A DNA stretch of 64,000 nt. It comes from Methanomassiliicoccales archaeon (GTDB taxonomy: Archaea; Thermoplasmatota; Thermoplasmata; Methanomassiliicoccales; JACIVX01). Location: NCBI GenBank assembly GCA_014361295.1, contig JACIVX010000001.1, positions 319,924 to 383,923 on the forward strand. Reading direction: 5' to 3'. The notes under the pieces are model-generated. The model had not been told where the DNA came from, made no database searches, and saw nothing but the letters and a program-made list of their open reading frames with translations. The position numbers and the translations under genes were made by a program. Below, one piece after another: positions 1 to 44,141 of the stretch. Position 1 is the stretch's first letter; the number at the start of each line of letters is the position of its first letter.

Positions 1-840
1 GGAGTTGAAATCAGTTGTACTTGTACGCCGTACTTAACAACGAATGTGCCACAGCCGGGTGATACTGTAGCATGGGCTGAATCATCAGCACTTTCTTATG
101 TTAATTCTGTCATCGGGGCGAGAACAAACAGAGAAGGCGGACCTGGCGCTCTTGCGGCAGCAATCATCGGAAAGACGCCACATTATGGACTTCATCTCGA
201 TGAAAATAGAAAGCCCACGGTAATTATCAAGGCAGATATTAGAGAGGGGGTCTTCGATCACTCTTTGCTTGGCCACGCCGTTGGAAAAATTGTATCAAAT
301 GGTGTTCCCTACTTTAGAGGAATACGACCATCTCAAGACGAAATCAAGACACTCGCGGCTGCTATGGCGGCGTCTGGTTCCATCGGTATTTTCCATATCG
401 AAGGGATCACACCTGGTGCAGATCGCTATGATCTAAATAAACTCGAAAAGATTGAAATCGGCAAGAGAGAGATTCAAGATGTATGTGAATCATTGAACAC
501 TGGCGAGGAACCAGAGCTCATTGCGCTGGGGTGTCCCCATCTGTCCATTAAAGAAGTGAAGGTTCTTGCAAAATTCCTGCGTTCGAAGAGAAAGAAGAAA
601 GATATCGATGTGTGGTTTTGTACATCGCGGTATGTTAAGGAAAGGTGCGAGAAGGAAGTCGAGATTCTCGAGAAATTCGGAAGGGTTATTTGTGACACAT
701 GCATGGTAGTTGCTCCAATCGAAGCTATGTATTCGTGCACCGCGACTAACTCAGCAAAGGCGTGCAATTATCTGCCGACGTTATGTTCGCAAAAAGTAGT
801 TTGCGCTGATTCAATTGAACTCCTGAGGATGATAACTTGA
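1..840 (+). CDS. Aconitase X (AcnX, DUF521) catalytic/large subunit, 5'-partial. Likely mevalonate-5-phosphate dehydratase large subunit.
   Basis: The reading frame is open from base 1 with no upstream stop. The ORF track starts it at GTG 46. The stop TGA is at 838-840. The sequence resembles the AcnX large subunit and is immediately followed, with a 4-nt overlap, by a DUF126 small-subunit gene. Confidence 0.65.
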   Translation, partial: GVEISCTCTPYLTTNVPQPGDTVAWAESSALSYVNSVIGARTNREGGPGALAAAIIGKTPHYGLHLDENRKPTVIIKADIREGVFDHSLLGHAVGKIVSNGVPYFRGIRPSQDEIKTLAAAMAASGSIGIFHIEGITPGADRYDLNKLEKIEIGKREIQDVCESLNTGEEPELIALGCPHLSIKEVKVLAKFLRSKRKKKDIDVWFCTSRYVKERCEKEVEILEKFGRVICDTCMVVAPIEAMYSCTATNSAKACNYLPTLCSQKVVCADSIELLRMIT

Positions 841-1655
841 TTCTGAAGGGTAGAGGTGTCTCAAGGGGCAGAGCAGAGGGAAATCTCATCCTCATTCATT
901 CCCCATTCAGTTTTCTCGGTGGGGTTGACACCAAGACGGGTTCTTTACTGGCTCCTGAAGAATTGAAAGGAAGGCAAATCGCTGGTAGGGTATTGGTTTT
1001 TCCGGTAGGAAAGGGCAGCACTGTTGGCTCTTACACAATTCTGGAATTAAAAAGGGCAGGTAATTCTCCAGTTGCCATTGTTAATGAAAAAGCAGAACCG
1101 ATCGTGGCAACCGGTGCTGTCATGGCAGGTCTCCCCCTTGTGGATAAGATCGATTTATCTCTGTTGAGAGACGGGGATTACGCACTTGTCGACGGGAATG
1201 AGGGTACCGTAGAGATTCCTGGGGTTGCTGAGAAACACGTCGTTTCCTGTGTTTTGAAAAAAGGAAATCGTATCTTGATATTAAAACGCAGTGAGAAGGT
1301 GGGAACTTTTAGAGGACACTGGGCAGGTGTTAGCGGTTTCGTCGAGAAAGGCGAGATGCCTTTGGAAACAGCATTCAAAGAAATATTGGAAGAACTGGGT
1401 ATCAACAACGCTAAACTCGTAAAGACTGGCACGCCTCTAATGATCAGATCTGGGGATATCCTGTGGACGATCCATCCCTATTTGTTTGATGTCGATGAAT
1501 CGAGGGTAACCACTGATTGGGAGCATACTGAATATCGGTGGATCCTTCCAAGCGAGCTAGCTTCATACGAGATAGTCCCTGGTCTCGACAAAGTCATATC
1601 ATCACTTCTTGCGAGCGACGGAAATGTGAAAAGTCAGAACGCCTCCAAGCGTTAG
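837..1655 (+). CDS. AcnX small subunit (DUF126 swivel domain) fused to a C-terminal Nudix hydrolase domain
   Basis: TTG start overlaps the upstream stop (TTGA). The N-terminal ~128 aa (MILKGRGVSRGRAEGNLILI...) is typical of the AcnX small subunit. The C-terminal ~140 aa carries a Nudix box, GVSGFVEKGEMPLETAFKEILEELGI (GX5EX7[RK]EUXEEXGU). Confidence 0.7.
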   Translation: MILKGRGVSRGRAEGNLILIHSPFSFLGGVDTKTGSLLAPEELKGRQIAGRVLVFPVGKGSTVGSYTILELKRAGNSPVAIVNEKAEPIVATGAVMAGLPLVDKIDLSLLRDGDYALVDGNEGTVEIPGVAEKHVVSCVLKKGNRILILKRSEKVGTFRGHWAGVSGFVEKGEMPLETAFKEILEELGINNAKLVKTGTPLMIRSGDILWTIHPYLFDVDESRVTTDWEHTEYRWILPSELASYEIVPGLDKVISSLLASDGNVKSQNASKR

Positions 1656-4600
1656 ATCGTCACATCGACTTCTTTCTCTAATAGATTCAATTCATGCTGT
1701 TCAAGTGTTGAGGGATTAAGCGCAATTAAGAGTATTGCTTCCTTAATCGCGACCTGATCTCTGAGAGATTGAACGAATCTCAGCACGGTTAGGAAATTGT
1801 TGTTTGTGATTAAGTATTCAAGCCCGTCGAGAAGTATGATGCTATTACTTGTTGATGAAAGGAATTGTTCCAGTGAGACACTTAACTTTTCCAGATCCTT
1901 CGGCCTTAGACTGTTCTCCTTCCCTACATTAGAAAGCCAGATAATCGGCGTATCACCGAGGTCATACTTCGTTTTGATCTTCAATGGATAATTTCTCGTC
2001 ACACAGAATCCTTTAAAACCTTTCGAAAGTGCCTTCATGAATAGTTCATACGACCGCTCCGACTTTTCTTCTTTGATAAGATACGTGAAAGTCTTCTCAA
2101 GTGCAAGCTCCTCGATTTCCTGGGCCTCAGCTTTTTCAACTTCTTCGATTTCTTCTCCCTCGATCGGAACACTCGTTCCGCACGAGGGGCATGCAAGCGC
2201 GTCAGGCATGATCTCCGATCCACATGTACTGCATGTGATGATCTTTTCAAATCCGCCTGACTGTGCATATTGGTAAATCGTATCCGCCGTTTTCGTACCG
2301 ATGCCCTTCAATGATCTGAGGTCTTCCCTCCTCGCTTTCTTGATCTTCTCAATGCTGTTGAATCCTGCATCATACAGCATTTCAGCCTTCAGTGAATTCA
2401 TCCTCGGAATCCTAAGCAAATAGGCGATAAACCGCTCTTTTGGCATCACTTCTTCTTTCGCGCTGATCGATCGGCCGCATGAGGGACAAACCGTTACTCC
2501 GGGTTTAATCGGTGCGCCGCAGCTTGGGCAAGATTCACCTTCGGCAGTTTCCTTTTTCGCGAAGAAATGGAGGATCTTCCTCATATCGTTCTTGTTCAAC
2601 CCTTTGACGCTTGAAAGACGCTCCTCGCCCGCTTTTTTCAGGTCCTCCAAATTCCTAAAACCACTTTCCGCGAGTGCAATTGCCGTTTCCCTCGTGAGTC
2701 CAGGGATCTTCATGAATTCCTTCATCGCGTCCCTTATATGCATCGACGTGATGCTAATGACAACATTCTCCCCTTCGATATCCCATTCTCTGACGAGCTC
2801 TCCCTTCGGCTCATCGACAAATTCGAGTTCTTGGGCTCTCGTTTCGCCCATAATATATTTCATGTGAATCTTGAAAAACTCAATAAGTTTCGTCGGCGCT
2901 CTTACTTGGACCTTAATGTACTCTTCGATATCGAGTTTGGCATCCTTTCTCATTTGCTGAATTCTTCTAATCAGTTCACGCGAAAATCCCTCTGCCTCGA
3001 TATCCTGCGTGATCTTGAAATCGATATACAATTCTCCTTCAGAGAATTTAGCGCTCGTCACATCGGGCGGAAGTGACACAGTAAATGAGACCATATTCGG
3101 CTCGATTTTGATGAGTTGCCCTTCGATGCCTAAGCAATACTCCCCCTTCTCAATGCTCTCTTTCACTTGTTTTGCAGGTCTGCTCTTCAAAAGCACGGCG
3201 ATCTTACTTGACCATTGTCGATAGACCTTTCCAATTGCGTGAGGATTCGGAACCACGTTGAGGATTAGCTCGTTCCATTCCTGATCTGGATTGACGTATT
3301 CTACTGTCTTAACATTCGCTTGCGAAAGGAGCACGCCCTCGAGGGATTTGATTGAATCCATTACTTCTTTATTCACTGGTTTGATAATCAACCGTCTTAA
3401 AGGCCAGCGTAGTTTAACGCCTTTGCTTTGTCTTTCTCTTGTCACAATCTCGACGATTTCCTGAACTGTTCTCATTGCCGTTTCCAATCGATCGTTTGTC
3501 TTTGTCATATCCGGAACTGGCCACTCCAGCATGTGAACCGATTCCAATGAACCGTCGAGGTGCTGGTAAATTTCCTCTGCAATATGTGGACAGAATGGTG
3601 CAATCAGTTTAACAATAGTCATCAACGCATCGTAGAGTGTTTTATATGCTGCGAGTTTGTCGAGATCGCCTTCCTCTTTCCACATTCTATCTCGAACAAG
3701 TCGTACGTACCACCTGCTGACATCCTCTAAAATGAAATCTTCGAGTGCCCTGCATGCCTTATGCAATTCGTATGAATTGAGATAGCGGGTCACGTCGTTT
3801 TTCAGTTTTTCGCATTTCGAGATAAGCCAGAGGTCTTCCATTCTCAGAGAATTCTTCAACATTTCATTACTTACCGACGAGGGATCGAATTTATCGATGA
3901 CCATATAGGATATGGCGAAATTGCAGACATTCCACAGGATGTTGAGTGTTCTTCTCGCATTCTTGACTCCTTCAAACTGAAACGCAATATCTTCCCATGG
4001 CGCGTTTGTCCTCATCATATAGAATCTCAAAGCATCTGCGCCGTATTCCTTGATGACAGCCGAGGGTTCTATGACATTTCCCCTGCTCTTCGACATTGGT
4101 TGTCCAGTTGGGTCAAGGACCCACCCGTGCATAAGGACGGACTCATATGGCGCCCTCTGAAAACAGATGCAGCTCGCAGCGAGCTGCGAATAAAACCAAC
4201 CCCTCGTCTGATCGTGCGCCTCGGTGATCCATTTTGCTGGCCACCATCTATCGAAGTCTTTTCGATTCCCGGGAAAACCGAGTTGTGCCCATGTCGATAC
4301 ACCTGAATCGAACCAGACATCGAGAACGTCAGGAACACGCCTCATTTCTCCGCCGCATTTCTCACATGTTAAAATTACGGCATCGATCCATGGACGATGA
4401 AGCTCCATCCCCTCTCTGTAACCCTTCGCACCCTTGAGATCGGAGATCATTCCGATGATTTTCATCTCCCCACACGTGCATTTCCATACAGGTAGTGGAA
4501 TACCCCAATATCTTTGTCTCGAGATGCACCAATCTCTTGCATTCAGGGTCCAATCGTACTCCCTTGATGACCCAGCCCAGTCCGGTGTCCATCTTATCTT

Positions 4601-5971
4601 CTCGATCTCTTCGAGCATCAGCTCCTTGATTTGAGTCACTCGAAGGAACCATTGACTCGTCGTTCTATATATAATTGGAGAATCACACCTCCAGCAATGG
4701 CCGTAACGGTGGTCGATCGTACCTTCATAGTAAATCAGACCTTTTTCCTTAAGACGTTCAATGATCAACGCGTTTGACTTTTTAACATTCATTCCAGCGA
4801 GCCAGTCCCCTGCATCCTTCGTGAATCTGCCAGTTTCATCAACGGGGCAGAATGCTTCAAGACCAAATTCCTGTCCAATCTCAAAGTCTTCAGGACCATG
4901 ACCTGGAGCGATATGAACGAGACCAGTATTCTCGGCCGCCACAGTCTTCGAAGGCACTACTCTGTGGACCCATTTACCCGTTGCGTTCTTCTGATATGGG
5001 ACTTCTTCATAAAACGGAGGAATGTATTCCTTTCCGATAAGATCGTCACCTTCAATAGTCCCCAATACTTCGAATTCTTCACAATCAGAGAGGGTGACGA
5101 CTTCTTCAATTAAACTCTCAAGAACGATAATCGTTTGACTTTTACCATCAGGCCCGAAACACTTGACCTTAGCATATGTAAAATCCGGATGTATCGCGAC
5201 TGCCATGTTTGCAGGCAAAGTCCAGGGGGTCGTGGTCCACACGAGTAGTGCGACATCCTCTTCGTCACGCAGGGGAAATTTGACATAAATTGATGGATCC
5301 TTTTCATCCCAATACTCAATTTCTGCTTCGGCGAGCGCTGTTTCACATCGCGGACACCAGGACAAGACTCTGTTTGCGGTCATTAAAAGACCCTGATCAT
5401 ATGCCCTCTTGAGTGTCCACCAAGCTGCTTCTATATACTCTGGTTTGATCGTCATGTAAGGATTTTCCCAATCAAGCCACACTCCGAGCTCCTTGAATTG
5501 CTCGGTCATCCTCTTCTGAAAATCAAGGGCAAATTCTTTGCAGGTGCTGACGAATTTATCGATTCCATATTCCTCAATTTCTTTCTTGCTTTTAATCCCG
5601 ATCGACTGCTCGACCTTCACCTCAATGGGAAGTCCGTGCATATCGTATCCAGGCTGATCCCTCACGTTGTATTTTTGCATCCTTCTGAACCTGATCAACG
5701 TGTCTTTGATGATTTTATTCCATGCGGTTCCGAGATGGATCGATCCAGTTGTATATGGGGGACCATCAACAAAATAAAAATCCGTACCGCTTGATCGAAG
5801 CTCCTTCGTTTTCTTATACGCGTTTGTGTGCTCCCAGTGCTCCTTCACTCTCTTTTCAATTTCTGCTGGATTGTAATTCTGTTGAACTTGCTTGATCATC
5901 GCCGTCCCTTCAGTCACCAAATATCCTTTGTCCTTTTTAAAATTAAGTAAACTGGAAATATGATATCCCAA
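1652..5971 (-). CDS. ileS: Isoleucyl-tRNA synthetase (class I) with an in-frame C-terminal extension of about 350 aa (HhH / zinc ribbon / HhH / zinc ribbon / DUF835-like)
   Basis: HIGH-type motif PPYTTGSIHLGTAW and KMSKS motif are present. The archaeal IleRS body is about 1080 aa. The tail has two CPSCG...CPSCG zinc ribbons, helix-hairpin-helix-like segments (LKGIGTKTADTI) and a terminal DUF835-like block (ILLDGLEYL...). Confidence 0.9.
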   Translation of the reverse strand: MGYHISSLLNFKKDKGYLVTEGTAMIKQVQQNYNPAEIEKRVKEHWEHTNAYKKTKELRSSGTDFYFVDGPPYTTGSIHLGTAWNKIIKDTLIRFRRMQKYNVRDQPGYDMHGLPIEVKVEQSIGIKSKKEIEEYGIDKFVSTCKEFALDFQKRMTEQFKELGVWLDWENPYMTIKPEYIEAAWWTLKRAYDQGLLMTANRVLSWCPRCETALAEAEIEYWDEKDPSIYVKFPLRDEEDVALLVWTTTPWTLPANMAVAIHPDFTYAKVKCFGPDGKSQTIIVLESLIEEVVTLSDCEEFEVLGTIEGDDLIGKEYIPPFYEEVPYQKNATGKWVHRVVPSKTVAAENTGLVHIAPGHGPEDFEIGQEFGLEAFCPVDETGRFTKDAGDWLAGMNVKKSNALIIERLKEKGLIYYEGTIDHRYGHCWRCDSPIIYRTTSQWFLRVTQIKELMLEEIEKIRWTPDWAGSSREYDWTLNARDWCISRQRYWGIPLPVWKCTCGEMKIIGMISDLKGAKGYREGMELHRPWIDAVILTCEKCGGEMRRVPDVLDVWFDSGVSTWAQLGFPGNRKDFDRWWPAKWITEAHDQTRGWFYSQLAASCICFQRAPYESVLMHGWVLDPTGQPMSKSRGNVIEPSAVIKEYGADALRFYMMRTNAPWEDIAFQFEGVKNARRTLNILWNVCNFAISYMVIDKFDPSSVSNEMLKNSLRMEDLWLISKCEKLKNDVTRYLNSYELHKACRALEDFILEDVSRWYVRLVRDRMWKEEGDLDKLAAYKTLYDALMTIVKLIAPFCPHIAEEIYQHLDGSLESVHMLEWPVPDMTKTNDRLETAMRTVQEIVEIVTRERQSKGVKLRWPLRRLIIKPVNKEVMDSIKSLEGVLLSQANVKTVEYVNPDQEWNELILNVVPNPHAIGKVYRQWSSKIAVLLKSRPAKQVKESIEKGEYCLGIEGQLIKIEPNMVSFTVSLPPDVTSAKFSEGELYIDFKITQDIEAEGFSRELIRRIQQMRKDAKLDIEEYIKVQVRAPTKLIEFFKIHMKYIMGETRAQELEFVDEPKGELVREWDIEGENVVISITSMHIRDAMKEFMKIPGLTRETAIALAESGFRNLEDLKKAGEERLSSVKGLNKNDMRKILHFFAKKETAEGESCPSCGAPIKPGVTVCPSCGRSISAKEEVMPKERFIAYLLRIPRMNSLKAEMLYDAGFNSIEKIKKARREDLRSLKGIGTKTADTIYQYAQSGGFEKIITCSTCGSEIMPDALACPSCGTSVPIEGEEIEEVEKAEAQEIEELALEKTFTYLIKEEKSERSYELFMKALSKGFKGFCVTRNYPLKIKTKYDLGDTPIIWLSNVGKENSLRPKDLEKLSVSLEQFLSSTSNSIILLDGLEYLITNNNFLTVLRFVQSLRDQVAIKEAILLIALNPSTLEQHELNLLEKEVDVTI

Positions 5972-10680: not shown

Positions 10681-10870
10681 ATTCTACGTGAAAAAAAAGA
10701 TTCTGGCGCGATAATATGGTGTATCACTTTTTTTGATCGACATAAGCGTACCTCTCATTGTTAAAAAACGTGGAATATTTTTGTATGGTGTTGATATAAT
10801 GGCATTGGTTCTTCAGAAAATTGGATGTAATCAAACAACATTCAGATTGTATAAGGGCAGGTTGATATCG

Positions 10871-12019
10871 ATGGTTCAGATGACACCAAGAGAGAGGGTT
10901 TTGGCCGCTATCAATTTGAAGGAACCAGATCGGGTACCATTGGATTTTGGCGGTGTCGTGTCTGGAATCGTTATGGGTTCGCCGTACGGGTACGAAGCGC
11001 TTTGTCGTGCGATAGGAGTCACCGATCCAATCGAACCACAAATCAATACAAGATTAAGTTGCGTGCAGAACATTGACGAGAGGATTTTGAAACGAATGGA
11101 TATCGATATCCGTCACATCAACATCGGGGGCAAACCACTGCAGGAGCTTCCTAACGGTCTTTACAGGGATGCATGGGGATTGATTTTAAAACCATCTGGG
11201 GTCTATAAGAGTATTCCAGATGAACTGGCACCATTGAGAAATGCCAAGACCATTGAGGATATTGAGAATTATTCATTTTGGCCAGACCCAGATGATCCAG
11301 TTTTTATCAAAGGAAAGAGAAAGGAAGCGAAGGAATTATACGACAGAACGGATTACGCGATATTTGCGCATCCAGGATATGCGGGTCGAATTTTTCATAT
11401 GTATGCAGGACTTCGAGGATTTGACAAATGGTTGCTCGATATGAGAATTAACCCTGAGTTTTACGACGCCTTCGCGACGAAAATCACCGATGTGGCAATT
11501 GATGTATGTAAATCGTTCTATAATGAAGTGGGAGATTACATAGATGTGGCGGTTTATTATGACGATATGGGTATGCAAACTGGCGGTTTTGTCTCGCTGG
11601 AAGACTATCGCAAATTCATCAAACCTTATACAGCCCGTTATGTCAAAGAAATAAAGAAGATAACAAAGGCAAAAGTATTCTACCACACCTGTGGCTCTGT
11701 TTATTCCTATGTGAATGATTTTATTGAAATAGGAATCGACATTCTAAATCCGATACAGCCTCTTGCAAAGAATATGGCGCCCGAATTACTCAAAAGAGAA
11801 TTTGGATCTCGAATCTGTTTCCATGGAGGGATCGATGTTCAAAGACTTCTGCCATTTGGGTCTGTGGATGAGGTGAGGGAAAGCGTTCGCAAAACGATGA
11901 AAATTCTTTCACCAGGTGGTGGTTGGATATTTGCTCCGGCTCATAATATTCAGCCTGACACCCCGCCTGAGAATATCATTGCCATGTATACGGTTGCTCG
12001 TGACTTTCAATTGAGCTAA
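10871..12019 (+). CDS. URO-D family protein, MtaA/CmuA-like methylcobamide methyltransferase-like
   Basis: The N-terminus PRERVLAAINLKEPDRVPLDFGG matches the MtaA-type rather than the HemE-type (no RQAGR motif). The gene is about 380 aa. An upstream GTG/ATG extension back to 10733 is possible but less likely. Confidence 0.65.
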   Translation: MVQMTPRERVLAAINLKEPDRVPLDFGGVVSGIVMGSPYGYEALCRAIGVTDPIEPQINTRLSCVQNIDERILKRMDIDIRHINIGGKPLQELPNGLYRDAWGLILKPSGVYKSIPDELAPLRNAKTIEDIENYSFWPDPDDPVFIKGKRKEAKELYDRTDYAIFAHPGYAGRIFHMYAGLRGFDKWLLDMRINPEFYDAFATKITDVAIDVCKSFYNEVGDYIDVAVYYDDMGMQTGGFVSLEDYRKFIKPYTARYVKEIKKITKAKVFYHTCGSVYSYVNDFIEIGIDILNPIQPLAKNMAPELLKREFGSRICFHGGIDVQRLLPFGSVDEVRESVRKTMKILSPGGGWIFAPAHNIQPDTPPENIIAMYTVARDFQLS

Positions 12020-14666: not shown

Positions 14667-16307
14667 ATGAAGTGGGAACTGGCTATCGTCGCATTGCTTG
14701 TTTTGTCTGGAGTGGGCATTTCTATTGCACAGGCAACAGATGGGACGGATGAATGTCCTGTTCTGATTGATTTTGGAAATGGGCGTATTCTTTGGGCAGA
14801 TGTGCCTGTGTCTGAAGGGATGACTGTTTTCAATTTGACGAAGGAGGCTGCTGATAGACTGCAAATCGAAATGGATTACACAGAATCCTCATATGGAGTT
14901 TTTGTCACTGGTTTTGATGGGGTACTTATGAATTGGCCTTATGAATGGTGGCATTTATGGATTTGGAATTCAACCACAAATAGTTGGCAGATGCCGACGC
15001 TTGGAGCAAGTGATTTGCTTGCCTCGCAGGTTGAAGCTGTTGCATGGAGCTACGTAATGGATCGAGCTGACTATTCCTGTATATCGCCTATTGCAACACC
15101 TGATAATCGTTATCCCTGGACGAGCTTCAGGCATGATTTGCTGAATACAGGATACTCAGACGGAATTTCTCTCGACAAAAGCGAAATTGTATGGGATCTA
15201 AATTTGTCGAATGGTGGAATTTCGAGTTCAATTGTCACCTGCGAGGATCGAATATTCGTTGTAACAGGAGGCATTTTTGATTGGACAAATTTCGAATACA
15301 CATCTCCACCGAAAGTCACTTGTATTGATTTCTCTGGGAATATCCTCTGGGAAACCGATATCAATGCAGCGGGTTATCAGATATCAACGCCAGTAGTCGC
15401 GGGCAATTTGATTGTGGTTCCATCAACAGATGGCAAGATATACGCTCTGAATCGTTTCAACGGGTCGCTCCAGTGGAGCGCGGAGATTGCAAATCCCTCT
15501 GCGGGTATAACCTCATCACCGATCTTCTATCGCAATCAAATCATAGTGGGCGGTGGTGATGGCAAAGTCTACGCCTTTGCCGAAAACGGCTCCCTCCTGT
15601 GGGACGTTAAAATCGCGTCCTCGATTTACTTTTCATCACCGTCCGCCCACAACGGTACAATCTATATTGGATCAGATGATGGCAAGTTGCATGCAGTCGC
15701 ATCTGACGGATCTGGTGAATTGTGGAATGTCACAATCGGGGGAAAGGTAAGATCCGCGCCACTGTTGACGGATCAGATGATTATTGTGACCTACGCGATT
15801 TATGAGACGTATGTGCCAGTAGATGGAGGAGTTGCCGCAATCCTGTACAATGGTACAATACAGTGGCGTGTTGATATCAACGCTACATCGAGCTCGCCAG
15901 CACTTAGTTCTAATGGAATCGTAGTTACATCGAGTGACGGTGTCACAATGATATCAAAAGATGGGGAGATCCTCTGGAATAAAGATCTTGGTGTTCTGCT
16001 GAAGGGCTCTCCCTCAGTTGGCCGTAACACAATTTATGTCGTATCTTATAACAACAGTGAAGTCTACGCACTCAACGAGCAGGGGAGTGTCATGTGGCAT
16101 GAATCTCTTCGACCTTCTCAGTATTCGATGTGTTCGCCCACAGTAACAGACAACATGGTATTCATCGCTTCTGATAATGGCCATGTCTACGCATTTTCAA
16201 TTCCAACAGAAAAGGGTAGCGGCCAGAACCTCATTTTGCCGATTGCGATTGTGCTAATTGCAATAGTGGTAATTGCCATTGTTGTGGCGATGAAAAGGAG
16301 GAAATGA
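14667..16307 (+). CDS. Secreted, membrane-anchored protein: signal peptide, DUF4430-like N-domain, PQQ-type beta-propeller repeats, C-terminal TM anchor
   Basis: N-terminal signal (MKWELAIVALLVLSGVGISIAQA). Residues about 30-140 carry W-x-LW-x-WN...SW...AVAWSY, like the DUF4430 gene that follows. Repeated DGK[IVL]YA PQQ-propeller motifs. C-terminal LILPIAIVLIAIVVIAIVVAMKRRK. Confidence 0.75.
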   Translation: MKWELAIVALLVLSGVGISIAQATDGTDECPVLIDFGNGRILWADVPVSEGMTVFNLTKEAADRLQIEMDYTESSYGVFVTGFDGVLMNWPYEWWHLWIWNSTTNSWQMPTLGASDLLASQVEAVAWSYVMDRADYSCISPIATPDNRYPWTSFRHDLLNTGYSDGISLDKSEIVWDLNLSNGGISSSIVTCEDRIFVVTGGIFDWTNFEYTSPPKVTCIDFSGNILWETDINAAGYQISTPVVAGNLIVVPSTDGKIYALNRFNGSLQWSAEIANPSAGITSSPIFYRNQIIVGGGDGKVYAFAENGSLLWDVKIASSIYFSSPSAHNGTIYIGSDDGKLHAVASDGSGELWNVTIGGKVRSAPLLTDQMIIVTYAIYETYVPVDGGVAAILYNGTIQWRVDINATSSSPALSSNGIVVTSSDGVTMISKDGEILWNKDLGVLLKGSPSVGRNTIYVVSYNNSEVYALNEQGSVMWHESLRPSQYSMCSPTVTDNMVFIASDNGHVYAFSIPTEKGSGQNLILPIAIVLIAIVVIAIVVAMKRRK

Positions 16308-16816
16308 GGCTAGGAGTCGTCATGGAAAACCGGCTTATTTGCAAGGTCATTATAATCGCCGCTATCGCGGCGATTTTTCTATTTTCTGGTTGTCTTGGAG
16401 GTGAAAGAGCTGCAGAAAAGGTTACGGCAACGTTGATCATCGATTTTAACGGACCCGAGGGAACGATTAAACCAGGAAATATGACGGTATGGCAGGAAAT
16501 TAATGGACAATGGAAGATTGTCGAATCAAATGAAAATGCAGGAAAAACGGTTTGGATTTTCAGAAATGTTTCCAATGTTTCAAATGTCTTCGAATTGACA
16601 CAGAGGGCCGCACAAATAGGTAACTTCACGCTCGATGTTCATCATTATTTGGGAATGGGCTATTTCATTGAGGCGATTGCTGGCGTCGAGAATGAGAAGC
16701 CAGGTCGTGGCTGGCAATATTGGGTGAATGATGAATATGCTATGAAAGCCTGCGACCAGTGGTACCTCAAAAATGGCGATGTTGTACGATGGAAATTTGC
16801 TGAAGCTTCGTGGTAG
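16304..16816 (+). CDS. DUF4430 (transcobalamin/intrinsic-factor beta-domain-like) lipoprotein
   Basis: Lipobox-like FSGCLGG after a hydrophobic signal. The C-terminus GWQYWVNDEYAMKACDQWYLKNGDVVRWKF matches the DUF4430 consensus W-Y-VN...L-x-GD-x-[VI]-x-W-x-[FY]. Confidence 0.6.
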   Translation: MRLGVVMENRLICKVIIIAAIAAIFLFSGCLGGERAAEKVTATLIIDFNGPEGTIKPGNMTVWQEINGQWKIVESNENAGKTVWIFRNVSNVSNVFELTQRAAQIGNFTLDVHHYLGMGYFIEAIAGVENEKPGRGWQYWVNDEYAMKACDQWYLKNGDVVRWKFAEASW

Positions 16817-17688
16817 ATAACATGATTTTTCCCTACAAGTCCGTTGACTCGAGGATTCACCGTCTTGACGCAAGGCCGAAACTGTTATTTGTCGCAGTAA
16901 TATTCATCTTTTCAATCCTCATCTCAGATATCGTCTATCTTGTTCTGTTTCTCGCTTTTGTTATTCTTGTTACATATATGGCAAGAATATTGAAATCGAC
17001 GCTTAGCATTCTTAAGTACGCTGGTTATGTTGCTTTTTTTGTTCTTCTTTTCAACATATTGATCTCAAGCGGTTCCAATAAAATCCTCGTTATCGGGCCG
17101 ATTGTTGTAACAACTGAATCGATGTTGTTTGCGATTAGCATGTGCCTGAGATTGTTTCTCGCTGTTTTTGCATTTTCAATTCTCACATATGCCATTCATC
17201 CTGATGAAGTTCTTCGAGCGATATCAAAATTCGGTTATAAGACCACATCTAGTCTTTCTCTCTCACTGCGAATGTACCCAACGATCGCGGCAGATGCGAA
17301 TAATATAATTGATTCAATGAAAGCCCGTGGTATGGAGTTCGAAAAGGGAAAATTCGTCGATAAAGTCAAGTCTCGTGCTGCGGTCGTGATGCCCTTATTG
17401 CTGAATTCTTTAGAACGATCGATCTCAGTTGCTGAGGCGATGGAGACGAGAGGATTTGGAGTAACAAAGAGAACAAATTTTGGCGAGCGAAAAATGATGA
17501 GACACGAATTATTTATGGCCTCTTCGTTTTGCGTTTCAATGATCCTTGGAATTTTTTTATTTGTTCTCGGTTACGGGAACGCGGATTATCTCAATGGTGC
17601 CGCACTCGGCTATTCTTTTGACGATATCGTTGCTCTTGCCCTTCTAATCGGAACCTTATCACCGATTATGTTCGGAGGTCGCCAATGA
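16810..17688 (+). CDS. ecfT: ECF transporter transmembrane T component (EcfT/CbiQ family)
   Basis: HRLDARPKLL N-terminal signature, multi-TM, about 290 aa. It overlaps both neighbours by 4 to 7 nt. Confidence 0.8.
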   Translation: MVDNMIFPYKSVDSRIHRLDARPKLLFVAVIFIFSILISDIVYLVLFLAFVILVTYMARILKSTLSILKYAGYVAFFVLLFNILISSGSNKILVIGPIVVTTESMLFAISMCLRLFLAVFAFSILTYAIHPDEVLRAISKFGYKTTSSLSLSLRMYPTIAADANNIIDSMKARGMEFEKGKFVDKVKSRAAVVMPLLLNSLERSISVAEAMETRGFGVTKRTNFGERKMMRHELFMASSFCVSMILGIFLFVLGYGNADYLNGAALGYSFDDIVALALLIGTLSPIMFGGRQ

Positions 17689-19154
17689 TACGGATTGAAA
17701 ACGTCACTTTTTCATATCCAGATTCTGCTGAACCAGCGCTCAAAGATATTTCTATTGAGATCCGCGAAGGCGAATTCATACTCATCGTAGGAAAATCGGG
17801 ATGCGGAAAATCCACACTGTGCAGGGCACTTAATGGCCTGGTACCGCACTTTTACGGTGGTACTTTTTCTGGCAGGGTTACAATTGATGGAATCGATACA
17901 AGAAGGGCTTCACCATCAAAACTCGCTGGGACAATCGGCATGATATTCCAGGATCCGGAAAATCAGCTCGTCATGACAAATGTTGAAAATGAACTTGCCT
18001 TCGGACTGGAAAATATCGCTTTGCCGATTGAGAAAATAAGGGAAAGGATCGAGCGATATAGCTCCTATTTTGGATTGAAAAACTTGATTCATCGTTTTAT
18101 CCCTGAGCTATCCGGCGGGGAGAAACAAAAAGTTGCACTAGCATCGATTCTCGCGATGCAACCGAAATATCTCGTTCTTGATGAACCGACATCTCAACTC
18201 GATGGAGAAAATACCCGGACTTTTTTGGAATCGATTAGAAATCTCAACGTTTCGATGGGTATTACAATCATCCTCGTTGAGCACAGGCTGGAACGCTGCC
18301 TTCAATATGCCGATCGGCTCATATTCATGAAAAATGGCAAGGTCGAATTCGATGGAAGAAGGGAAGAAGCCATACCGTACCTGAAAAGCGAGAATCTGAT
18401 TCAAACGTTTTCAAGAAAAGCGAATCAAGTTAACCATCATCAAGAAATAATCCTAGAAGCGAATAATATTTGGTTTTCCTATGGAAACTCTCATATTCTT
18501 AAAGGCCTGAATCTTTCCGTTAAGAAAGGCGAAATATTGGCGATCACTGGCGCGAACGGAAGTGGAAAGTCAACGCTTTTGAAAAATCTCAATGGTCTTC
18601 TAAAGCCAGAGGAAGGCACTGTTACCATTTTCGGAAAGGATATTTCAGGGCGTTCAACTGCGGAATTGGCTGCTGAAATTGGATACCTAAGCCAAAATCC
18701 AAATGACTATTTATTCGAGAGGAATTTGCAGAAGGAACTCGAATTTACGCTTACAAATCTTAAGATCGCAAAAGCTGAATGGGAAGAAAGGATTTCGTGG
18801 GCTCTCTCCATTCTCGATCTGTCGAAGTATCGCAGAACATTTCCGAGGGATCTGAGCTGTGGAGAAAGGGAACGGGCAGCTTTGGCTTCAATACTCGTCG
18901 CAAAACCGAGGATACTGGTGCTTGATGAGCCTACGCGGGGCTTGGATCAATGGAATAAGGCAAAGCTTGGGCAAATCCTACAATCACTGCAAAAAGAGGG
19001 TTTCACGACGATCATCGTAACGCACGACTATAGGTTCATTGCGGAATACGCAAATAGAGTTCTGAGATTGCATGAAGGACGCTTGTACGAAATTCCTTTT
19101 GATCGTATCTATCCAGCGATTGCAGGGAATGATGGAGGGATAGCCGTATCATGA
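17685..19154 (+). CDS. ecfA: ECF transporter ATPase, duplicated (fused EcfA1-EcfA2)
   Basis: Two ABC cassettes: Walker A GKSGCGKST and GANGSGKST, signatures LSGGEKQK and LSCGERER, Walker B LVLDEP x2. Confidence 0.9.
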   Translation: MIRIENVTFSYPDSAEPALKDISIEIREGEFILIVGKSGCGKSTLCRALNGLVPHFYGGTFSGRVTIDGIDTRRASPSKLAGTIGMIFQDPENQLVMTNVENELAFGLENIALPIEKIRERIERYSSYFGLKNLIHRFIPELSGGEKQKVALASILAMQPKYLVLDEPTSQLDGENTRTFLESIRNLNVSMGITIILVEHRLERCLQYADRLIFMKNGKVEFDGRREEAIPYLKSENLIQTFSRKANQVNHHQEIILEANNIWFSYGNSHILKGLNLSVKKGEILAITGANGSGKSTLLKNLNGLLKPEEGTVTIFGKDISGRSTAELAAEIGYLSQNPNDYLFERNLQKELEFTLTNLKIAKAEWEERISWALSILDLSKYRRTFPRDLSCGERERAALASILVAKPRILVLDEPTRGLDQWNKAKLGQILQSLQKEGFTTIIVTHDYRFIAEYANRVLRLHEGRLYEIPFDRIYPAIAGNDGGIAVS

Positions 19155-19921
19155 GACGAGTTGTAAAGTCATTTGTTATCACCGGGGCAATAGCAAGTCT
19201 TGCTTCGTTGATTCTTTTAACAGTCTATGATCCCACGGATCTCCGGCTGTATGCAACTTTTCTAACCACACTATTTATTTTCTTTATGATTCTTCTCGTT
19301 TTCATTAAATTTGAAGAATCATCGGTCTCCTCGAAAGAGATCGCGTTAATAGGTATTCTATCGGCAATTACCGCGGCGTCGAGAATTCCTTTTGCAGCGT
19401 TGCCAAGTGTTCAACCTTGTACTTTTTTGATCGCTGCAACTGGCATCGTCTTCGGCCCACTCGCAGGCGTCATGGTTGGCAGCATGACTGCCGTTGTTTC
19501 AAATATGTTCCTTGGGCAGGGGCCATGGACGGTTTGGCAGATGGTCGGGTGGGGGATAGTGGGATTGATCGCTGGTCTGATCGGAGAACGTTTTCCAAAT
19601 GTCGGTGTGGGGGGTCTTGCAGGTCTCGGAGTTGTTTTCGGAATTCTTTATAATACACTGCTCGACTTCAGTAGCTGGATATGGCTTTATAGTCTGGATA
19701 CGACGAAATTCCTTCTTGTCTTCTCACTAGGGTTACCATTTGGGATCTTGCATTCAATTGGCAATGTGATTTTTGCCATTGTCCTTGGGCCTCCCGTTCT
19801 TTTCTCCTTCAGGAGATTCAAGAAGAGATTCCGGGTGATTTTCGCTGGCAATACAAGTGCAAATGAAAATATCACGGAAATCGATATAAACGAGCGCACA
19901 GAAGCCGTTTATGCGAGATGA
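19151..19921 (+). CDS. Integral membrane protein, candidate ECF substrate-specific (S) component
   Basis: 6-7 predicted TM helices, glycine-rich. Its start overlaps the ecfA stop by 4 nt. S-component families are poorly conserved, so assignment to one rests on the gene's position next to ecfA and ecfT. Confidence 0.45.
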   Translation: MRRVVKSFVITGAIASLASLILLTVYDPTDLRLYATFLTTLFIFFMILLVFIKFEESSVSSKEIALIGILSAITAASRIPFAALPSVQPCTFLIAATGIVFGPLAGVMVGSMTAVVSNMFLGQGPWTVWQMVGWGIVGLIAGLIGERFPNVGVGGLAGLGVVFGILYNTLLDFSSWIWLYSLDTTKFLLVFSLGLPFGILHSIGNVIFAIVLGPPVLFSFRRFKKRFRVIFAGNTSANENITEIDINERTEAVYAR

Positions 19922-28726: not shown

Positions 28727-29713
28727 ATGCGCAAAAACTGGGGAATGAATATGGAAGGGACATCTTCGATCACAAAATGGGAATGGATTAAAAACGTCTT
28801 CCGATTCACGTATACTTTGCCATTTGTTCTTGCCTCGCTTACAGGTGTCTTTACTGCTTTAGTTCATACCTCTCAAATAATAATCGGCGCTTTCATCGTA
28901 CTCGATGTTTTTGTACTCGCCTTATTTGTTAATCTTTCAAATGATTACTTTGATCATAAAAGTGGCGCCGATTCCACAAGATTTTTTTCGAGAGACAAGG
29001 AATTTGAAAGGGGAGCAAGGGAGATACTGAGTAGCAAGTTATACTGGTCAGGAAATGCGTTCGACCTCGGTTATATCACAGAATCCCAGGGGAAAATGCT
29101 GATGGCTGTTCTGGTGGGATTAGCGATCCTCCTCTCAATTCCGATCATCATCTATGGAGGTCTCGTTGTCATTCTTCTCGGTCTCATCGCATTTTTTCTG
29201 AGTTATTTTTATACCGCTCCGCCTCTGAATCTTGGAGCGCGTGGTCTTGGTGAGTTCGACGTTTTTCTTTCATTCTGTATGATTTCTTTCTTTTCCTTTT
29301 TTGTTATCACTGGTTTTTTTAGTCATGATGCCTTCCTCATCGCATTATCGGTCGGTCTCCTTGTAATGAATATGCGAATAGTTGATGAGATGTCGGGGTA
29401 CGAAGCGCATATTGAAGCAGGGGAAAAGGATCTCTGTGTTCGTCTTGGCCTGAAAAACGCGTCAAAGTTGGTAGTTGTCATCATGGTCCTCGTTTATTTC
29501 ATCTCAGCGATTATCGTTGCGCTCTCAAGCATTTTCTACTTATTAGTATTCCTCTCAATTCCTTTTTCATACAAAATCACAAAAACGCTCTTTAATGAGA
29601 GTGATCGTTTCAGATATGTGCGATCCGCCCCTTTAGCATTCAAGTTATCATTTTCATTTCAATTGTTGATAATCATTGCGTCGATAGCGCGAATCTTCGT
29701 GACATCTGGGTAA
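28727..29713 (+). CDS. UbiA-family prenyltransferase
   Basis: NDYFDHKSGAD (the NDxxDxxxD Asp-rich motif) with 8-9 TM helices. Confidence 0.8.
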   Translation: MRKNWGMNMEGTSSITKWEWIKNVFRFTYTLPFVLASLTGVFTALVHTSQIIIGAFIVLDVFVLALFVNLSNDYFDHKSGADSTRFFSRDKEFERGAREILSSKLYWSGNAFDLGYITESQGKMLMAVLVGLAILLSIPIIIYGGLVVILLGLIAFFLSYFYTAPPLNLGARGLGEFDVFLSFCMISFFSFFVITGFFSHDAFLIALSVGLLVMNMRIVDEMSGYEAHIEAGEKDLCVRLGLKNASKLVVVIMVLVYFISAIIVALSSIFYLLVFLSIPFSYKITKTLFNESDRFRYVRSAPLAFKLSFSFQLLIIIASIARIFVTSG

Positions 29714-42933: not shown

Positions 42934-43054
42934 CTCTGATTGTGATTGACTTTCTCAACATAAGCATTTCTTTTCTTTCAAGAGGAAGTTATTAAAATCC
43001 TCTAGTCTTTTGCGAAAGATACACTTACATATTTCGGTGAAAATAGAGGTTTTC

Positions 43055-43582
43055 ATGCAAAAGACGATCAATGGGATTACTGTAAGGGTACTGAGAGGTG
43101 ATATCACCGAGATGGAGACGGAGGCGATCGTCAATGCTGCAAACAACATGCTATGGATGGGTGCTGGAGTAGCTGGTGCGATCAAGAAAAAAGGCGGAAA
43201 AGAAATTGAGGAGGAAGCATTGTCAAAAGGACCAATTCCAGTTGGCGAGGCAATTGTTACTGGGGCAGGCCGGCTAAAGGCCAAGTATGTGATTCATGCT
43301 GCCAGTATGGGTCAGGATTTGAAAACAGATGCCAAAAAGATTGCCTCCTGTACGTTGGCAAGTCTCAAGAGAGCGGACGAACTTGGAATCAAGAGCATAT
43401 CATTTCCTGCCATAGGAACTGGCGTAGGTGGTTTTTCAATTGATGAGGCTGCCGAGGTGATGATAAACACGATAATTGATTACATCAAAAGAGGTACGGG
43501 TCTGCAGTTGATTCAATTCACGTTATTTGATGAGGATACAAAGAAAGCTTTCGAAAATGTTCTCGAGCGCGTAGGGGATTGA
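43055..43582 (+). CDS. Macro domain protein (ADP-ribose / Appr-1''-p binding or processing, AF1521-like)
   Basis: IVNAANNMLWMGAGVAGAIKKKGG...AIVTGAGRLKAKYVIHAASMG...SISFPAIGTGVGG. Confidence 0.85.
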   Translation: MQKTINGITVRVLRGDITEMETEAIVNAANNMLWMGAGVAGAIKKKGGKEIEEEALSKGPIPVGEAIVTGAGRLKAKYVIHAASMGQDLKTDAKKIASCTLASLKRADELGIKSISFPAIGTGVGGFSIDEAAEVMINTIIDYIKRGTGLQLIQFTLFDEDTKKAFENVLERVGD

Positions 43583-43583
43583 T

Positions 43584-44141
43584 GTGGCGAGATTCAGGGC
43601 CTTCATTGCGGTCGATCTGAAGGCTAACGAAAAAATAGCGAAAGTTCTTGAAGAACTGAAGAACGCACTACCATCGCTCAAACTCGTTGATCAAGCAAAT
43701 GTGCATATTACTTTGAAATTCCTTGGAGATACTGATGAATCGCTGATTCCAGACATCAAAAAAATTATTGAAAGAGCAACAGTTGGATTAAGCCCATTCA
43801 CAATTTCGCTGATCGGGACTGGTGCTTTCCCATCAAAAACGAAAATTCGTGTGATCTGGATTGGAATCAGAAATGCTGAGCAACTCTCGATTATCGCGAA
43901 AAAACTCGATGAAGAATTGCACTCACTTGGATTTGAAAGGGAAAAGAGGGAATTCAGTCCACATTTGACTCTTGCAAGGGCGCGAGAGATCATTTCATCA
44001 ACGAAAATCGAGAAGCTCATCGATCAATACAGTGAAGAAGAATTTGGGAAGGAAGTGGTACAGTCAATCAGATTGAAGAAATCGGTGTTGACACCAAAGG
44101 GATCGATATACAGCACAGTGGATGAAGTGATATTGGGTTGA
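43584..44141 (+). CDS. RNA 2',3'-cyclic phosphodiesterase of the 2H family (LigT/ThpR)
   Basis: Two H-x-[TS]-x motifs, HITLKF and HLTLAR, in a 185-aa protein. It starts 2 nt after the macro gene stop. Confidence 0.8.
   Translation: MARFRAFIAVDLKANEKIAKVLEELKNALPSLKLVDQANVHITLKFLGDTDESLIPDIKKIIERATVGLSPFTISLIGTGAFPSKTKIRVIWIGIRNAEQLSIIAKKLDEELHSLGFEREKREFSPHLTLARAREIISSTKIEKLIDQYSEEEFGKEVVQSIRLKKSVLTPKGSIYSTVDEVILG

Follow-up and report, generated by a model that had tools for sequence, protein, structure and literature searches.

Gene Structure and Identity of the AcnX Pair

The window analysed here, a 64,000-nt stretch of contig JACIVX010000001.1 of a Methanomassiliicoccales archaeon, begins with two AcnX genes in tandem, the second of which encodes the AcnX small subunit joined in one reading frame to a C-terminal Nudix hydrolase domain. 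The first gene (1–840, plus strand) is truncated at the window edge; its reading frame, frame 1, meets no stop from base 1 until the TGA codon at 838–840 and encodes the C-terminal 279 amino acids (aa) of the large subunit (DUF521), which matches PF04412 in Pfam (E-value 5.5e-103, profile positions 112–396 of 400) and the solved large subunit 7cnr_A. The N-terminal 110 aa lie to the left of the window and were taken from the near-identical Joint Genome Institute (JGI) contig L007 (21 mismatches in 11,655 nt), giving a complete large subunit of 389 aa. The second gene (837–1655, plus strand) has a TTG start and encodes a protein of 272 aa, in which Pfam recognises the AcnX swivel domain PF01989 (DUF126) at aa 24–102 (E-value 2e-28) and the NUDIX domain PF00293 at aa 136–254 (E-value 7e-14), as does the AlphaFold2 model; one relative (P0001) is 100% identical to this fusion protein. 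The small-subunit domain, outlined by its match to 7cnr_B and by Foldseek, spans aa 1–128 (837–1220, plus strand) and contains the loop GKGSTVGSY (aa 58–66, nt 1008–1034); the Nudix domain, outlined by PF00293 and Foldseek, spans aa 129–262 (1221–1622, plus strand). The Nudix box, read directly, occupies G167–I189 (1335–1403, plus strand; GFVEKGEMPLETAFKEILEELGI), with K181 at the Arg position.

The two genes overlap by 4 nt. At the junction (...GAGGATGATAACTTGATT), the sequence from 825 to 840 (plus strand) can be read directly as a signal for translational coupling, comprising GAGG at 825–828, the TTG start at 837–839 and the TGA stop of the large-subunit gene at 838–840. This TTG is the earliest possible start in the fusion frame, GAGG lies 9–12 nt 5′ of it, and homologues share the start residue (MILKGRG). 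The 4-nt overlap recurs in relatives L002 (TTGA) and L001 (GTGA) and, by a start-choice heuristic, in 35 of the 55 fused loci considered below. The preliminary description of this DNA had reported the tandem large and small subunits, the TTGA overlap with the TTG start and a C-terminal Nudix domain whose box is intact save Lys for Arg; the Pfam matches, the sequence and the overlaps in L001 and L002 confirm the observed gene pair in all these points. The letters given there for the Nudix box were right, but the string began three residues too early.

The gene pair is followed by a convergent isoleucyl-tRNA synthetase (IleRS) gene (1652–5971, minus strand; 1439 aa), whose stop overlaps that of the fusion gene by 4 nt. 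In a C-terminal extension of about 400 aa, this IleRS has two zinc-ribbon-like CxxC...CxxC pairs, a DUF835 domain and two helix-hairpin-helix motifs; relatives, lineages without AcnX among them, also have a DUF835 extension on their IleRS.

The best-supported account of the pair, judged from sequence, is that it forms a heterodimeric [4Fe-4S] phosphomevalonate dehydratase of AcnX type IIb. For both subunits, the closest solved structure is the Thermococcus kodakarensis enzyme (TkAcnX): the large-subunit fragment in the window matches 7cnr_A with an E-value of 1.1e-72 and the full protein with 7.9e-110, and the small subunit matches 7cnr_B over aa 3–127 with 1.2e-32. Foldseek places the small-subunit half on the TkAcnX small subunit with a target-normalised TM-score of 0.92 and a root-mean-square deviation of 1.3 Å. 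In the TkAcnX large subunit, C110, C283 and C342 are ligands of the Fe-S cluster, E129, S130, S131, K361 and Y365 bind the carboxyl and 3-OH groups, and G48-V49-S50, N53 and N79 bind the 5-phosphate; in the small subunit, the functional residues are S62, T63, V64 and L27, of which S62-T63 are catalytic (PMC8184944). The window protein has Cys at all three cluster-ligand positions and keeps, in TkAcnX numbering, E129, S130, S131, K361, Y365, N79 and G48-V49-S50; the exceptions are N53, replaced by Thr, and A47, replaced by Ser. The N-terminal contacts among these were taken from the L007 protein. In the small subunit, the segments GKGSTVGSY and FSFLGG align residue for residue with 7cnr_B, and S62-T63-V64 and L27 are kept. 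The activity proposed for the pair in the preliminary description, phosphomevalonate dehydratase, can thus be assigned because the catalytic and ligand residues match those of TkAcnX.

A proline-dehydratase type of AcnX was considered as an alternative and rejected. The hydroxyproline-binding residues of bacterial AcnX enzymes, Asp203, Thr72, Trp35 and Ile206 in AtAcnX numbering (PMC8184944), are replaced here by Ser, Val, Leu and Ser, respectively, and therefore this alternative fails; the NCBIfam model of the proline-type AcnX gives 188 bits against a cut-off of 700. As a dehydratase of the archaeal mevalonate pathway, the enzyme would convert mevalonate 5-phosphate to trans-anhydromevalonate 5-phosphate. 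In the annotated part of the window (about 8–50 kb), no mevalonate-pathway enzyme is present, and neither a UbiD-type decarboxylase, nor a UbiX-type prenyl-FMN (prenylated flavin mononucleotide) synthase, nor an isopentenyl phosphate kinase (IPK) was found there; the only prenyl-metabolism gene in this part encodes a UbiA-family prenyltransferase (28727–29713).

Fold and Family of the Nudix Domain

The box is in register with the Nudix signature GX5EX7REUXEEXGU, with K for R (G167-FVEKG-E173-MPLETAF-K181-E182-I-L-E185-E186-L-G188-I189). The AlphaFold2 model of the fusion protein, built on 48 fusion sequences, has a pLDDT of 92.2 and a pTM score of 0.80; in this model, the swivel domain extends to about aa 127 and the first strands of the Nudix sheet follow from about aa 131, leaving practically no linker. 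A Foldseek search with the Nudix half returned many Nudix structures with a probability of 1.0; the best match was BdRppH (3ees, TM-score 0.82 to the target), and the others included NudI, ORF135/NudG, diadenosine tetraphosphate (Ap4A) hydrolases, a Methanosarcina MutT and NudB. The 48 fusion proteins, which are 52–85% identical, show no variation at G167, E185, W228, E229 or H230, and conservation of E173, E182 and E186 is 90% or higher. The Arg position varies: of 154 aligned proteins with the first Gly and Glu of the box in place, 95 have K there, 53 have R and 6 have another residue, the residues seen being K, R, L, I, Q and T. Given the conserved metal-binding glutamates and the confidently predicted Nudix fold, the domain is very probably an active hydrolase.

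The same data bear on the suggestion that the Nudix domain is a structural or regulatory appendage of the small subunit, serving dimerisation, stability or ligand sensing without catalysis of its own. The missing linker and the fixed mutual orientation of the two domains, as predicted by the model, speak for such a role, as do the variable Arg position and the retention of decayed N-terminal domains before the Nudix domain in lineages lacking AcnX, which suggests mutual structural dependence. Against it stand the invariance or near-invariance of the box glycine and the metal-binding glutamates across 48 diverged fusions and the existence of stand-alone proteins of 130–140 aa with the same motifs; since the catalytic residues are conserved, a purely structural role is very unlikely.

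The module is, by its sequence motifs, a member of a distinct, mostly archaeal Nudix subfamily with the hallmarks RS-x-KVG-x3-G-x-WAGVSGY-x-E, HPFLF and DWEHTEYRW. Its substrate cannot be read from the sequence, since all curated NCBIfam models score far below their cut-offs against the fusion protein and the structural neighbours are diverse, being generalists with differing substrates. Type 1 isopentenyl diphosphate isomerase (IDI), which also has a Nudix fold, was rejected as an identity: no curated IDI model matched at an E-value of 0.01 or lower, and the stand-alone relative P0163 scored 24.8 bits with the IDI model against a cut-off of 127.

Distribution of the Fusion and Decay at the Conserved Slot

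The protein search returned 1045 relatives; the best 120 of these all have both Pfam domains, with 53–100% identity and lengths of 243–315 aa, and the named ones among them come from Methanomassiliicoccales or Methanomassiliicoccus genomes. Many relatives bear the JGI pipeline label 'predicted aconitase with swiveling domain/8-oxo-dGTP pyrophosphatase MutT (NUDIX family)'. With a seven-sequence alignment of the Nudix domain as the query, a scan in which each species was represented by one genome found 323 relatives, and the locus counts given here cover the best 80 of them. In 54 of these loci, AcnX large, AcnX small and Nudix are consecutive, one has AcnX small and Nudix with no AcnX large within 4.3 kb upstream, and 25 have Nudix without any AcnX. 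In all 55 loci that have both AcnX small and Nudix, the similarity to the two runs within a single uninterrupted frame, and no case of the two standing next to each other unfused was found among them. The fused loci belong to Methanomassiliicoccales and related Thermoplasmata, with CP058896.1 as one example of a fused genome; among named genomes, 'Methanomassiliicoccales archaeon LCB019-061' (L008) is the closest, being 95% identical over the Nudix domain.

These counts also dispose of an artefact of assembly or annotation, for instance a frameshift or an overlooked stop codon, as the source of the fusion. At 55 independent species-level loci, as in hundreds of protein clusters, the frame is uninterrupted, and it is the same on the second, strain-level assembly L007; because of the many independent assemblies, an artefact is excluded for practical purposes. 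The fusion is an ancient one, standard for this gene throughout Methanomassiliicoccales and related Thermoplasmata. Public pipelines already annotate it automatically, and the idea of something peculiar to the genome of the window was not borne out. The remark in the preliminary description that the fusion was not known as described still holds, in that no paper describing an AcnX small-Nudix fusion was found in the literature; the AcnX structure paper (PMC8184944) and a survey of the archaeal mevalonate pathway do not mention it. Both domains are of known kinds and the architecture was already visible in public databases.

The surrounding gene order is conserved as well and unrelated to isoprenoids: proton-translocating pyrophosphatase (H+-PPase), RpoE′, Spt4, DUF359, S24e, (S27ae), AcnX large, AcnX small-Nudix, convergent IleRS and FEN1. 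In every relative examined, the AcnX genes stand among transcription and translation genes. The preliminary description had named, as telling against its reading, a complete classical mevalonate pathway in the genome combined with clustering of the AcnX genes with unrelated metabolism in relatives; this applies in part, the neighbours being genes of transcription and translation.

In the Sysuiplasma-type Thermoplasmatota, the same slot (RpoE′-Spt4-DUF359-S24e ... IleRS-FEN1) has no AcnX large and contains a protein of 242–256 aa, whose C-terminal half has all the Nudix subfamily motifs. The N-terminus of this protein begins like AcnX small (MLRLQGRG...), the GKGSTVGSY loop is lost, and no Pfam domain is recognised in the N-terminal half; such decayed-swivel loci are L003–L005, L044, L046, L048, L056, L059, L065 and L066, and genomes of this type include Ca. 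Sysuiplasma superficiale JAGVSJ01 and GCA_037025365.1. In L088, which represents another lineage about equally distant, with an IleRS 52.5% identical to that of the window, a 139-aa Nudix protein stands alone between S27ae and IleRS. The spacer between S27ae and Nudix in L088 (776–1026) contains a tRNA-like sequence, which by eye appears to be interrupted by an intron.

Decay was also scored, by alignment, in the motifs of 203 related proteins of two-domain size. The S-T-V loop and the Nudix box are both intact in 125 of them; 25 keep the Nudix box with the S-T-V loop absent; 18 keep the loop without a full Nudix box, most of these through a single conservative change, with grossly degenerate boxes in P0135, P0141, P0151 and P0164; and the remaining 35 fail both strict criteria, though most still have the REUXEE glutamates and the DWEH motif. 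Decay in either half at one locus means that the two halves are evolutionarily separable in both directions, and the Nudix domain is the more constant resident of the locus than AcnX. A GC-rich two-domain relative, P0297, is located outside the conserved slot.

The Nudix domain of the window is 45–50% identical to the non-AcnX forms and 44–49% identical to the deep AcnX-fused forms, with the subfamily motifs unchanged. A neighbour-joining tree of the domain, based on about 130 residues and without support values, nests those Thermoplasmata forms that lack AcnX within the fused ones; this weak tree fits repeated loss after an old fusion. Replacement of the archaeal mevalonate pathway by haloarchaeal-type or Thermoplasma-type variants is documented within Thermoplasmatota (PMC11052028), which makes the loss of the dehydratase plausible.

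Elsewhere in the window, a gene at 10733–12019 (plus strand) encodes a URO-D family protein, which fits an origin in Methanomassiliicoccales; this family includes the methylcobamide:coenzyme M methyltransferases. The region 14667–19921 (plus strand) encodes a pyrroloquinoline quinone (PQQ) β-propeller protein, a DUF4430 protein and a transporter of the energy-coupling factor (ECF) type (CbiQ, a double ATP-binding cassette (ABC) ATPase and an S component). A Macro-domain protein, directly followed by a LigT/2H phosphoesterase, is encoded at 43010–44141 (plus strand; mapped from L090); both are families that handle ADP-ribose or 2′,3′-cyclic phosphates. ARAGORN found no tRNA genes in the window.

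Partners, Substrate and Origin of the Nudix Domain

The representative search and the genome scan also revealed members of the Nudix subfamily that have no AcnX partner; these share the same motifs and are 41–50% identical to the window domain. Stand-alone members of 122–143 aa occur in Thermoplasmata, Aenigmatarchaeota and Bathyarchaeia, and fusions of an N-terminal Nudix domain to an IF-2B domain occur in Nitrososphaerales (P0207), in Bathyarchaeia (P0257) and in the 'Thaumarchaeota' genome L083. The best score of the IF-2B partner domain is to ribose-1,5-bisphosphate isomerase, below the cut-off. In one Chloroflexota genome, the Nudix gene adjoins an IF-2B gene, and a CinA-Nudix fusion is present in one Dehalococcoidia genome; the IF-2B and CinA contexts lie at L083 5992–7356, L006 8001–9353, L087 6001–7304 and L076 5446–6399.

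In five loci from Thermoplasmata genomes, the start of the stand-alone Nudix gene is overlapped by the stop of a gene for a protein of about 595 aa with PIN, PilT-like ATPase and KH domains (L055, 3135–5320, and also L057, L070, L085 and L080), an overlap that suggests co-translation with a putative RNA-processing factor. In L055, PurP comes next after the Nudix gene; other immediate neighbours of stand-alone members include a PNP_UDP_1 phosphorylase, a PurQ-like amidotransferase and, at two loci, a PfkB kinase. The operons of the pentose bisphosphate pathway are made up of three families, an IF-2B isomerase, a PfkB kinase and a 'uridine phosphorylase' (PMC9700705), and it has been proposed that in archaea a Nudix enzyme converts phosphoribosyl pyrophosphate (PRPP) to ribose 1,5-bisphosphate (bioRxiv 10.1101/2019.12.22.886556). 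Outside the AcnX fusion, no gene of the mevalonate pathway stands beside any examined member of the subfamily, and mevalonate kinase (MVK), IPK or UbiX was never found next to the Nudix gene in the loci examined.

From the IF-2B, PfkB and nucleoside/purine contexts, together with the persistence of Nudix without AcnX, we infer that the function of the Nudix domain is autonomous from the dehydratase. The reading towards which we lean, by a modest degree and on comparative sequence evidence, is that an autonomous pyrophosphatase was captured by gene fusion and that it more probably acts on a nucleotide or ribose diphosphate than on an isoprenoid one. Gene structure, residues, fold, distribution, the locus series and the gene contexts are shown directly, whereas enzymatic activities, substrate class and an origin by adjacency are inferred. 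The fusion would have arisen when the stop codon that separated the AcnX small gene from an adjacent Nudix gene was lost within the conserved block S24e-S27ae-[AcnX]-Nudix-IleRS; it would have taken place in an ancestor of Methanomassiliicoccales and their relatives and been carried along since, perhaps retained because splitting is hard. The candidate activities are conversion of PRPP to ribose 1,5-bisphosphate, or of nucleoside diphosphates linked to a further moiety (NDP-X) or nucleoside triphosphates (NTP) to nucleoside monophosphates (NMP).

The preliminary description had suggested a different substrate class, isoprenoid pyrophosphates. In its fuller form, this alternative has the Nudix domain acting on C5 isoprenoid diphosphates beside the dehydratase, converting either dimethylallyl diphosphate (DMAPP) to dimethylallyl phosphate (DMAP) or isopentenyl diphosphate (IPP) to isopentenyl phosphate (IP). 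The DMAP would feed a UbiX-type prenyl-FMN synthase, whose product is the cofactor needed by the next enzyme, anhydromevalonate phosphate decarboxylase; in the other variant, the IP/IPP pool would be balanced against IPK. A fusion that is conserved and translationally coupled across an order, with catalytic glutamates under selection, is consistent with this, and so is the presence of NudI and NudB among the nearest solved Nudix structures, since E. coli NudB, NudF, NudI and NudJ turn DMAPP into DMAP, on which UbiX acts (PMC12359138), and provide a precedent. Plant and human Nudix enzymes are also reported to hydrolyse isoprenoid diphosphates.

A further point of this kind comes from L091 (3433–7588), probably a bacterial contig, where a UbiD-type decarboxylase, AcnX large, AcnX small fused to an ARMT1/DUF89 fragment, and a second ARMT1 fragment follow one another, so that an ARMT1/DUF89 phosphohydrolase gene stands directly 3′ of AcnX small in a UbiD-AcnXL-AcnXS operon. 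This adjacency of a phosphatase to lower mevalonate genes of archaeal type is real; it is also the sole case of a UbiD near an AcnX gene, and the partner is ARMT1 ('damage-control phosphatase'), not Nudix. The AcnX small-ARMT1 protein P0266 was dropped as independent support for a phosphohydrolase linked to the pathway, as several genes on L091 are split and it may be a frameshift artefact.

The comparative data tell against the isoprenoid substrate. The Nudix domain survives at loci that have lost AcnX large and whose swivel domain is decayed or absent, and in some lineages the dehydratase loop is intact but the Nudix box is dead; its other partners, by fusion to IF-2B-type isomerases or CinA and by adjacency to nucleoside and purine genes, never include MVK, IPK or UbiX, and the annotated part of the window has no mevalonate-pathway gene. 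UbiX enzymes, moreover, vary in their need for DMAP, some being DMAPP-specific (PMC6541611), and the UbiX of these archaea may or may not require it. With Nudix persisting without AcnX, decaying independently of it and having other partners, the earlier proposal finds no comparative support; action on C5 isoprenoid diphosphates beside the dehydratase is unlikely, and it is distinctly improbable that the Nudix domain welded to the small subunit is a C5-diphosphate phosphohydrolase of either kind (DMAPP to DMAP or IPP to IP). The domain is probably not a dedicated isoprenoid-diphosphate hydrolase.

Several points nevertheless weigh against the favoured account of an autonomous, captured pyrophosphatase. 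An intact fusion throughout an order, tightly coupled to AcnX large, would also be expected from a functional link, and the neighbours in structure and sequence include E. coli-type NudI and NudB, two of the Nudix enzymes for which dephosphorylation of DMAPP is reported (PMC12359138). Only one to five loci stand behind each non-AcnX context, and the contexts are of mixed kinds, so that the nucleotide/ribose substrate is to be taken as a lead. As IP, IPP and DMAPP occur in all archaeal variants of the mevalonate pathway, the persistence of Nudix without AcnX is compatible with an isoprenoid substrate too; the loss of AcnX is seen at the level of the locus, not genome-wide, and the nesting of AcnX-less forms among fused forms comes from the short, unsupported alignment tree mentioned above.

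The archaeal mevalonate pathway has phosphomevalonate dehydratase as its signature enzyme, and engineering of this enzyme into bacteria for the production of isoprenoids is under way; that a whole order of methanogen-related archaea has a small subunit of this putative dehydratase with a fixed Nudix domain is relevant to expression and crystallisation work. The locus also offers a natural experiment, with the intact fusion, a decayed dehydratase half and a decayed Nudix half found at one locus and the stand-alone Nudix in a separate lineage, and it draws attention to a Nudix subfamily that is widespread in archaea, uncharacterised and also fused to IF-2B. If an activity on C5 isoprenoid diphosphates proved true, the supply of a cofactor or the control of a pool would be physically coupled to the archaeal mevalonate pathway, and the enzyme would be the first of its kind in archaea and a possible source of archaeal DMAP.

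Among known systems, the pair resembles ApAcnX of Aeropyrum pernix and TkAcnX of T. kodakarensis (7cnr/7cns), which likewise consist of tandem large and small subunits, and nearly all mevalonate-5-phosphate contacts and all Fe-S cysteines of these enzymes are kept; unlike them, the small subunit of the window is longer by a Nudix domain of 135 aa, and its genes stand among transcription and translation genes, not with other genes of the pathway. With the small generalist Nudix hydrolases (Bdellovibrio RppH 3ees, NudI 3oga/3n77/6dt3, E. coli ORF135/NudG 2rrk, the Ap4A hydrolases 5cfi/3i7u/4ijx and NudB 2o5w), the Nudix domain shares the fold and the box, and with the Ap4A hydrolase of a malaria parasite (5cfi) also the motif E-H-x-x-Y/F-R/K-W near the C-terminus, but the identity is only 19–30%, and the window domain has its own subfamily motifs and the fusion to AcnX small. 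The Nudix enzymes that act on isoprenoid diphosphates (plant NUDX1, E. coli NudB/F/I/J, human NUDT15/18) are a functional class, not a sequence family; they have the superfamily in common with the window domain, and the similarity is limited to a weak match to NudI (E-value about 1e-5 to 1e-6). The Nudix domains of the uncharacterised proteins P0215, P0250, P0206 and P0257 are 41–45% identical to that of the window and share the subfamily motifs, and their partner is a sugar-phosphate isomerase of the IF-2B family, not AcnX small.

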